Positions 2,189 to 26,585 of a stretch of DNA of 64,000 nt are shown here, in pieces. The notes below the pieces were generated by a model. It saw nothing but the letters and a program-made list of their open reading frames with translations. It made no database searches and was not told the DNA's origin. Numbering within the stretch: position 1 is the stretch's first letter; the number at the start of each line of letters is the position of its first letter. The translations under genes were made by a program, and so were the position numbers. The stretch comes from a phage, in assembly GCA_029742005.1 (NCBI GenBank), contig GCA_029742005.1_4113.1; one strand, written 5' to 3'.

Positions 2189-2226
<38 letters not shown>

Positions 2227-2589
2227 GAATTCCACAATCAGACGTATATGGTGTAAGTTACGTCGATGCAATCCAGAACAAGATCTCTGGTACTCTAGGA
2301 AGTGGTGAATGTTAACCTAGACGGGTTTGATAATTGGACGATAGGCAATTATTACTTGACTAGCAGGTTTAAACTAGAGGTGATAGTCCTTCACCAAACT
2401 GGAAAACCGGATGGACTTTTATTTAAAAGGGTAAGGCGTGGAAATATGTTTACAGAAGTTGCTTTTAGTAGCCTGTACGCCCCACGTCAAGGTAGCCGAA
2501 AGGCAAGTTAAAACGGGTGGTTATAAAGCTGAATTAACAGCGGCGTTTAAAAGCGTCACCATCCATTTTTTTTAATTAAAGTTGGTGAT

Positions 2590-2979
<390 letters not shown>

Positions 2980-3004: not shown

Positions 3005-3241
<237 letters not shown>

Positions 3242-26393: not shown

Positions 26394-26585
26394 ATGTTGA
26401 TTTATCAAAGTGATAATATTCGTGTTATGCAGCATCCCTACTTACAAATCTTTGATGTGCAGCAGTATATGGAAGGTGATGACCCAAGAACCTATGGTCG
26501 TAAGTATGATTACTTCACTGTAAAGCAGTGTAAAAATATTAACGAAGTACGACAATTAGTTCAAGAACTTCAAAACAAAGGTTGA
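26394..26585 (+). CDS. hypothetical protein
   Basis: Internal ATG after AAGGA RBS (MLIYQSDN). Confidence 0.45.
   Translation: MLIYQSDNIRVMQHPYLQIFDVQQYMEGDDPRTYGRKYDYFTVKQCKNINEVRQLVQELQNKG

Follow-up and report, generated by a model that had tools for sequence, protein, structure and literature searches.

Phage tRNA arrays are increasingly viewed as counter-defense loci, and they also hold several enigmatic RNAs, among them species 1/2 of T4 and the ROOL and GOLLD RNAs. In T4, the species 1/2 RNAs, rnaC (139 nt) and rnaD (119 nt), are encoded in tandem with a tRNA, in the order tRNA-Arg, rnaD, rnaC, and carry no annotated function. ROOL and GOLLD are structured, multi-pseudoknot RNAs of phages and prophages, often found near tRNA islands; their function is unknown, and many GOLLD members exceed 800 nt (PMC12286853). 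The T-even tRNA region itself is reported to be amplified to escape a tRNA-cleaving defense (PMC13096335). Here we analyze positions 2227–2589 of a 64-kb stretch of phage DNA (the window), which lie in its tRNA region directly downstream of a sigma-70-type promoter. Comparative evidence points to a non-coding unit, driven by this promoter, that would encode two independent modular small RNAs, termed here RNA-A (~2228–2416) and RNA-B (~2431–2573). We put the probability of this reading at roughly 0.8.

The promoter-proximal stretch of the tRNA region

By sequence, the window comes from an Asteriusvirus (121Q/PBECO4-like) jumbo phage with E. coli as host: positions 2100–2700 are 99.7% identical to Escherichia phage vB_Eco_slurp01 and 96–98.5% identical to 121Q, PBECO4 and other Asteriusvirus. 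The initial 6 kb form a tRNA region composed of tRNAs, small open reading frames (ORFs), HNH endonuclease-like ORFs and a repeated promoter cassette (ARAGORN called seven tRNAs in the window). When compared by megablast with Klebsiella jumbo phages (K64-1, RaK2 and Muenster; Alcyoneusvirus), only 2229–2576 aligned, and the flanking ORFs did not. The stretch therefore stands out as an island of conservation that runs from just past the –10 element to the T-run, and conservation confined in this way far exceeds chance expectation. An initial annotation, made from the sequence alone, had called the stretch locally GC-richer, which it is: GC content is 0.38–0.415 at 2201–2600 versus ~0.30 immediately upstream and 0.24–0.32 immediately downstream, the enriched part covering ~345 bases. 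Structure prediction, which the same annotation had proposed as a check, showed the plus strand to fold better than its shuffled versions (z = –2.45, as compared with –1.42 for the minus strand). GenBank records of relatives leave the region unannotated or label it 'hypothetical protein'.

Such labels have some basis, in that two ORFs of the stretch are real and some deposited genomes annotate hypothetical proteins beneath the match. The first, ORF 2302–2511, had been described as the only ORF here and as lacking a ribosome binding site (RBS). It does lack a usable one, since AGGAA, the sole purine-rich motif before it, ends directly at the GTG with no spacer; but it is accompanied by a second GTG ORF, of 45 aa, at 2438–2575 on the plus strand. 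Yet the homologues of ORF 2302–2511 in K64-1, RaK2 and a metagenome relative (meta20) have an in-frame TAA while retaining ~90% nucleotide identity. Neither ORF has a match in Pfam or PHROG; both flanking ORFs (1778–2131 and 2590–2979) match PHROG families. Moreover, ORF 2302–2511 straddles two modules that are lost independently, half of it being missing from JNE01 and from coliphage EJP2, and the tRNAs that flank RNA-A in Bragavirus, Novosibvirus and Aeromonas phages leave it no room. The substitutions observed are compensatory for base pairing. A conserved frame, an RBS at a workable distance and a protein family were each sought for ORF 2302–2511, and none was found. We give hardly any credence to a protein-coding gene at either ORF; ORF 2302–2511 is not a gene, and the stretch is non-coding. 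This corrects the 'hypothetical protein' labels in many deposited jumbo-phage genomes.

Two modules can be told apart within the stretch. In sensitive BLAST searches with 2227–2589 as the query (query base 1 being window position 2227), query bases 1–189 (window 2227–2415) showed 85–91% identity in Bragavirus (Proteus PM2 and Pm5461, Morganella Mm5, Shigella SdyM006) and in a T5-like Proteus phage. EJP2 retains query bases 1–201 only and JNE01 198–363 only, and Kuravirus phages match over 54 nt within the second half. The arrangement of the relatives can be described accordingly around the AU-rich linker between the modules. In EJP2, likewise an Asteriusvirus, the promoter and RNA-A are followed at once by tRNA-Ser(gct), which replaces the post-linker sequence, and RNA-B is absent. 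In JNE01, everything up to the linker is deleted, RNA-A included, and the cassette promoter is fused directly to RNA-B. K64-1 has both modules, with an additional promoter (TTGAAC...TATAAT) inserted in the linker. In Asteriusvirus of the phAPEC6 type, the cassette promoter retains only the initial 37 nt of RNA-A behind it; then come an RBS and the homologue of ORF 2590, and RNA-B is absent. These natural deletions mark RNA-A and RNA-B as dispensable accessory cassettes. Where one non-coding RNA in the tRNA region had been envisaged, its non-coding character holds and covarying structure is found (see below), but the single RNA gives way to what appear to be two independent modular RNA genes. 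We also note that the 37 nt left in phAPEC6 (locus L032, 1201–1237) amount to the H1 hairpin, which forms the 5′ leader of the ORF 2590 homologue.

The consensus promoter proposed at 2198–2226 was borne out, with 11 of 12 consensus matches plus an extended –10 (Table 1). Judging from the spacing, transcription would start ~7 nt past TATAAT, at ~2233–2234. The same cassette occurs at 1719, 2970 and 3862, preceding other units. tRNA-Ser genes lie behind the copies at 2970 and 3862, and with the same ~7-nt spacing, transcription from 2970 would start exactly on the 5′ G of tRNA-Ser, at 3005. An identical promoter stands directly before the ORF 2590 homologue in phAPEC6 and before RNA-B in JNE01. 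The primary transcript in the window would comprise RNA-A, the linker and RNA-B, ending at a branched terminator, and read-through of this terminator would express ORF 2590. Since the phAPEC6 homologue of this ORF (82% identical) lies directly behind the same promoter, ORF 2590 probably belongs to the same transcription unit by way of read-through.

Some further observations concern the promoter region. Repeated promoter cassettes of the window fall into two families. One, TTGACTAAATAGTTCAGTACTGATATAAT, precedes tRNA, RNA and ORF units (1719, 2198, 2970, 3862), and the other, TTGACTTCGGTCAGCC(C)TTTTTTGTTATAAT, is found farther downstream, at 26582, 38105 and 38688. Immediately 5′ of the promoter is a nine-codon mini-ORF (2161–2190, MFKDERPDL) with a strong Shine–Dalgarno sequence, conserved among close relatives.

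Fold and distribution of RNA-A

The helices and pseudoknots of RNA-A (Table 1) were derived by eye on alignments. A covariance model, R1, was built from nine enteric sequences with the nested helices only; it recovers 18 of 18 distinct homologues (E < 1e-18) and has no match in the T4, N4 or Kuravirus loci. Pairs were counted on alignment A6 (18 sequences, 846 pair cells), with a slid control in which partners were moved by 1–3 columns. Standard pairs make up 96.5% of the pair cells, versus 28–38% in the slid controls, and compensatory change is seen in 29 of the 48 pairs. Some pairs take three or four types (e.g. GC, AU, UA and CG in H6), which indicates multiple independent events, and invariant U-G pairs identify the plus strand as the transcribed one. 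Such strong covariation, G-U pairs included, supports selection at the RNA level on the plus strand.

Because the pseudoknots (PK1–PK3) were left out of R1, the alignment was not fitted to them. In PK1, the first loop is 1 nt long and the third is A-rich (UUAAA, 2369–2373). PK2 contains two covarying pairs, one occurring as GC (12), AU (5) and GU (1) and the other as UA (13), CG (4) and UG (1), and pair 5/95 of PK3 occurs as CG (10), GC (6) and AU (1). In Aeromonas phages and in an IMG/VR contig, L008, the 5′ third of RNA-A is misaligned by MAFFT as well as by the first model, so the percentages for PK3 and for H1 and H2 (88% paired) are lower bounds. Invariant joining regions are ACGGGnUUG, the GACGAUA loop and CUUGACUAGCAGG...AAACUAGAGGU. 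Together these elements would give a compact body of six helices held by pseudoknots, with the 5′ end led into the loop of H3 and the 3′ end into that of H6. With both termini tied into pseudoknots, RNA-A should resist exonucleases and persist as a stable RNA. Support for the label 'candidate stable RNA', which the stretch had been given, is comparative throughout. As a separate observation, GAGGUGAU at 2377–2384, in the 5′ strand of H6, has a GAGGU core that is invariant in 18 of 18 homologues and is complementary to the 3′ end of 16S rRNA. No start codon follows, so this is either chance or a ribosome-directed feature.

In other phages, RNA-A is found among tRNA genes. It fills the gap between tRNA-Gly (with its CCA end) and tRNA-Asp in PM2 and SdyM006 (Bragavirus, T4-like), and in Proteus phage 1 (Demerecviridae, T5-like) the order is tRNA-Leu, RNA-A, tRNA-Ser; in all three, RNA-A lies within 1–4 nt of a tRNA 3′ end. 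In Aeromonas phages avDM6, 65, AP1 and P19, tRNA-Pro is followed immediately by RNA-A, then by ~85 conserved bases and tRNA-Thr. Alignment to these four gives the same placement in CC2 and AS-szw, whose own records list no tRNAs here. Contig L008 (IMG/VR, 120 kb) has RNA-A ~200 nt upstream of a run of tRNAs. With the placement in EJP2, this makes RNA-A part of the tRNA operons of at least five phage groups, from three families. Identity to the RNA-A of the window is 84–95% among Enterobacterales phages and 55–62% in Aeromonas phages and L008, and base pairing is kept in the latter despite this divergence. The family appears to travel as a cassette between tRNA operons of unrelated phages.

Searches of IMG/VR with the core pattern (exact or degenerate) returned one new contig, L008, plus known isolates, and JGI metagenomes searched with core patterns returned close relatives only. 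The core was absent from GTDB (one genome per species), and BLAST with the Aeromonas and L008 versions of RNA-A added no further lineage. Seven IMG/VR loci obtained with a looser pattern (L011–L017) were discarded as unrelated chance matches.

Two other conserved elements were noticed beside RNA-A. The ~85 non-coding bases between it and tRNA-Thr in the Aeromonas T4-like phages (avDM6, L003 2081–2167) are possibly another small RNA. In K64-1 (L005 2334–2499), a further conserved non-coding block, 'RNA-C', sits between tRNA-Gly and RNA-A. Two helices of this block, GUGUACA/UGUACAC and GGGUUA/UAACCC, appear to cross, and a copy of the three-way-junction module forms its end; the sequence TTGACA...TATTAT within it could also serve RNA-A as a promoter.

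How would RNA-A be released? In tRNA operons it would be co-transcribed with the tRNAs and probably freed by 3′ trimming of the upstream tRNA plus an RNase P cut at the 5′ end of the downstream one. In the window, cleavage in the AU-rich linker, a likely processing site, would free it. Alternatively, RNA-A could itself be catalytic, e.g. a self-cleaving ribozyme that processes the tRNA operon transcript; its compact multi-pseudoknot fold, its invariant joining regions and its position 1–4 nt from a tRNA 3′ end would all suit such a role. But no Rfam model of a self-cleaving ribozyme (hammerhead, twister, HDV-like, glmS, pistol, hatchet and others) matches at E ≤ 10, and in the window RNA-A starts at the promoter, where 5′ cleavage is unneeded. 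We consider a ribozyme of this kind highly unlikely. Given the cassette-like spread of RNA-A, its independence from neighboring genes and its compact fold, we favor action in trans through a bound protein or ligand. The partner would most likely be a protein or small ligand tied to tRNA metabolism or host defense.

RNA-B, its 3′ module and neighboring features

RNA-B would be a separate gene of the small-RNA type, beginning with a long bulged hairpin, continuing with a GNRA hairpin and ending in a branched intrinsic terminator plus U8. Pairing in the bulged hairpin is 94.8%, versus 27–39% in slid controls, with three compensatory pairs, and a homologue of the hairpin occurs in Kuravirus XT32/1-6bf. 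Support for this 5′ part is moderate, since all three compensatory pairs come from one split, jumbo phages versus Kuravirus, and the structure of RNA-B is less well supported than that of RNA-A. Of the GAAA-loop hairpins that the initial annotation saw in the stretch, GCCGAAAGGC at 2495–2504 is the sole true GAAA-tetraloop hairpin. The T-run it placed near the end is there, as eight T at 2566–2573. RNA-B has its own promoter directly upstream in K64-1 and JNE01 and a 3′ stem plus U-run, as small-RNA genes do. A pattern search of IMG/VR for RNA-B returned 121Q only.

The three-way junction at the 3′ end is a module in its own right. Pairing reaches 96.4% of cells over seven copies, and compensatory change is seen in 6 of 16 pairs. 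The outer stems compensate from copy to copy (GGGUGGU/ACCAUCC, GGAUGAU/AUUAUCC and GGAUAGU/ACUAUCC). Three copies occur in the tRNA region of K64-1 (after RNA-C, at the end of RNA-B and 2 bases after tRNA-Ser(tga)), and a covariance model, R2, finds one copy in the window. In our reading, the modeled fold is a branched intrinsic terminator that also supplies the 3′ ends of small-RNA and tRNA units; its presence behind a tRNA and another RNA in K64-1 argues for a general 3′ module. This 3′ domain was also considered as a tRNA-like minihelix, having a 7-bp stem plus two hairpins, and that idea was rejected: it has no CCA end and no 7-nt loops. The branched terminator is the simpler choice because the same module follows a tRNA in K64-1.

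The succession of promoter, structured RNA, terminator plus U-run, RBS and ORF would also suit a cis-acting leader (riboswitch or attenuator), with the stretch, or RNA-B at least, controlling ORF 2590 through the terminator at 2515–2573. In phAPEC6 the same promoter drives the ORF directly, and GGCGUGG (2435–2441) has two possible partners, as read from the sequence, ACGCC (2477–2481) or CCACGUC (2482–2488). Yet RNA-A adjoins tRNAs in four lineages with no ORF downstream, the K64-1 gene after RNA-B is unrelated to ORF 2590, and the terminator module of K64-1 also follows a tRNA and another RNA. No anti-terminator pairing with 2515–2521 was found, nor an expression platform, and the downstream gene is not of one class. 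Because RNA-A precedes tRNAs elsewhere and K64-1 has a different gene behind RNA-B, we regard a cis-acting leader for ORF 2590 as unlikely and retain the reading of two independent small-RNA genes.

Several points weigh against that reading. The promoter, the terminator and the RNA ends in the window are predictions, and the branched stem escapes a simple terminator scan. A start at ~2233, as predicted, would truncate PK3, leaving two to three of its four pairs in this phage. The covariation score of RNA-A was reached by 0 of 500 shuffles, a control that does not amount to a probability, and many of the covarying cells trace to few events, because the family is small, with ~four deep lineages beyond close relatives. 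Nucleotides 2374–2377 have two mutually exclusive pairings with equal support, PK1 and an alternative with 2399–2401; these are inseparable because the same Ceceduovirus lineage carries both compensations. The two pairings could reflect a conformational switch or a coincidence. Covariation in the RNA-B hairpin goes back to a single divergence, and phAPEC6-type phages do without both RNAs.

Other features were noted in related loci and in the surrounding tRNA region. In XT32 (L007 1637–1848), an RNA-B-like hairpin is followed by a 64-nt module and then by a 148-nt tRNA-like RNA ending in CCA. The 64-nt module (L018 1501–1565) has 80–98% identity in > 100 N4-like, Kuravirus and other phages, and in the tRNA cluster of phage N4 (L018 1396–1751), ~350 bases carry tRNA-like elements (T-arms, CCA ends) but no annotation. 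In the window, 1277–1360 is a tRNA-like sequence called by neither ARAGORN nor Rfam. Its acceptor stem has 7 bp and it ends in GCCA; the anticodon loop reads CUUCUAA (UCU, Arg) and the T-arm ACAGG-UUCGAGU-CCUGU. The D arm is missing, and the variable region carries an additional hairpin. At the matching place, relatives have an ordinary tRNA-Arg(tct) (L019 8300–8376). Four paralogous small ORFs that start MTHEEW... lie among the tRNA genes, at 172–348, 690–872, 1382–1546 and 1543–1707.

Table 1. Predicted features of the promoter-proximal stretch and its borders (positions in the window)
Feature	Position	Strand	Remarks
Sigma-70-type promoter	2198–2226	+	TTGACT 2198–2203, 17-nt spacer, TG, TATAAT 2221–2226
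RNA-A, conserved structured RNA	~2228–2416	+	~185 nt; six nested helices, two to three pseudoknots
RNA-A helix H1	2238–2246/2259–2266	+	nested
RNA-A helix H2	2273–2277/2286–2290	+	nested
RNA-A helix H3	2294–2299/2316–2321	+	nested
RNA-A helix H4	2330–2336/2346–2352	+	nested
RNA-A helix S1	2354–2358/2364–2368	+	nested
RNA-A helix H6	2379–2383/2391–2395	+	nested
PK1, H-type pseudoknot	CUAG 2360–2363 (S1 loop) with CUAG 2374–2377	+	100% paired; UA (14), AU (4)
Alternative to PK1	2375–2377 with CUG 2399–2401	+	100% paired; AU (14), UA (4); extends H6
PK2	GUCC 2386–2389 (H6 loop) with 3′-terminal GGAC 2413–2416	+	100% paired
PK3	5′-terminal CCAC 2232–2235 with GUGG 2302–2305 (H3 loop)	+	97% paired
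Spurious ORF	2302–2511	+	GTG start, 69 aa; spans RNA-A and RNA-B
AU-rich linker	2417–2430	+	UUUUAUUUAAAAGG; between RNA-A and RNA-B
RNA-B 5′ part (2431–2512): long bulged hairpin	P1 2435–2441/2482–2488; P2 2448–2455/2473–2480; P3 2458–2462/2468–2472	+	
GNRA hairpin	2495–2504	+	GCCGAAAGGC; RNA-B, after the bulged hairpin
RNA-B 3′ part, three-way junction	2513–2573	+	outer 7-bp stem 2515–2521/2558–2564, then T8 2566–2573
Hairpins of the three-way junction	2528–2531/2538–2541 and 2542–2546/2553–2557	+	RNA-B
ORF 2590	2590–2979	+	PHROG 38341, function-unknown family; outside both RNAs

Comparison with known RNAs

Rfam 15 (4227 models) was searched at gathering thresholds over the window and at E ≤ 10 over 2100–2700 and five loci of RNA-A homologues. 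The whole window returned tRNAs only, region 2100–2700 gave two chance matches far below threshold, and nothing overlapped RNA-A in the five homologue loci. Within 2227–2589, ARAGORN found no tRNA or tmRNA, and Rfam no tRNA. As to the covariance-model search that had been suggested as a check on this stretch, no Rfam 15 family covers the RNA that R1 recovers at 18 loci. No sequence similar to RNA-A or RNA-B is present in 5,426 E. coli genomes, so neither obviously imitates an RNA of the host. The literature, searched by phage name, by topic and with literal sequence, yielded no description of either RNA, the supplement of a 10,006-candidate viral RNA survey lying outside this comparison. RNA-A is a new, well-supported family of structured RNAs from phage tRNA operons, as yet uncatalogued.

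Two resemblances were tried and rejected. In an RNase P-like reading of RNA-A (GAGG...GUCC plus the 3′ strand), the order of elements is wrong, and the Rfam RNase P models miss it. HDV-like and glmS-like topologies do not fit the order of pairings.

In function, RNA-A might be a phage RNA of a new class, acting as a ribozyme or else as a decoy or sponge and countering a host system directed against tRNAs or translation. We offer this as a tentative and rather doubtful idea. If it is true, a decoy might mimic the substrate of a tRNA-cleaving defense nuclease, or sequester a protein or signaling ligand; a counter-defense role would explain the horizontal spread between phage tRNA arrays, and the alternative pairings of 2374–2377 would reflect a conformational switch.

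The initial annotation had pointed to the stable small RNAs encoded in the tRNA region of T4. The likeness lies in arrangement: as with rnaC and rnaD, RNA-A, RNA-B and the RNA-C of K64-1 stand in tandem beside tRNAs, and RNA-A is found in tRNA operons. It does not extend to homology, because the covariance models miss the T4 tRNA region; neither R1 nor R2 has a match in the T4 region holding rnaC and rnaD (L004), and BLAST of the stretch returned no Tequatrovirus record. The sizes differ as well, and rnaC carries a canonical T-arm, CCGGGUUCGAAUCCCGG (read from the sequence), whereas RNA-A has none.

RNA-B compares with promoter-to-terminator small-RNA genes of the Hfq type. It is ~145 nt long, has its own sigma-70 promoter in K64-1 and JNE01, and ends in a 3′ stem plus U8, with single-stranded A/U-rich sequence ahead of the terminator. 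It differs from them in having a branched three-way junction as terminator, where theirs is a simple hairpin, and in having no homologue in E. coli genomes.

RNA-A shares with H-type pseudoknot RNAs the pairing of hairpin loops with downstream sequence, short crossing loops and an A-rich third loop. In plant-virus tRNA-like structures, the 3′ end of the acceptor arm is locked in a pseudoknot, and the 3′ end of RNA-A is locked into one likewise. Unlike these structures and riboswitch aptamers, RNA-A has no CCA end, expression platform, consistent downstream gene or Rfam match.

ROOL (~580 nt) and GOLLD are roughly three to five times longer than RNA-A. The Rfam models of the two give no match at E ≤ 10, and RNA-A stays below the > ~500 nt size of these RNAs. 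Set beside the enigmatic RNAs of phage tRNA arrays, RNA-A is a small, tractable addition (~185 nt). It lends itself to structure determination, partner pull-downs and host-range tests, and the natural deletion variants would provide ready-made controls.

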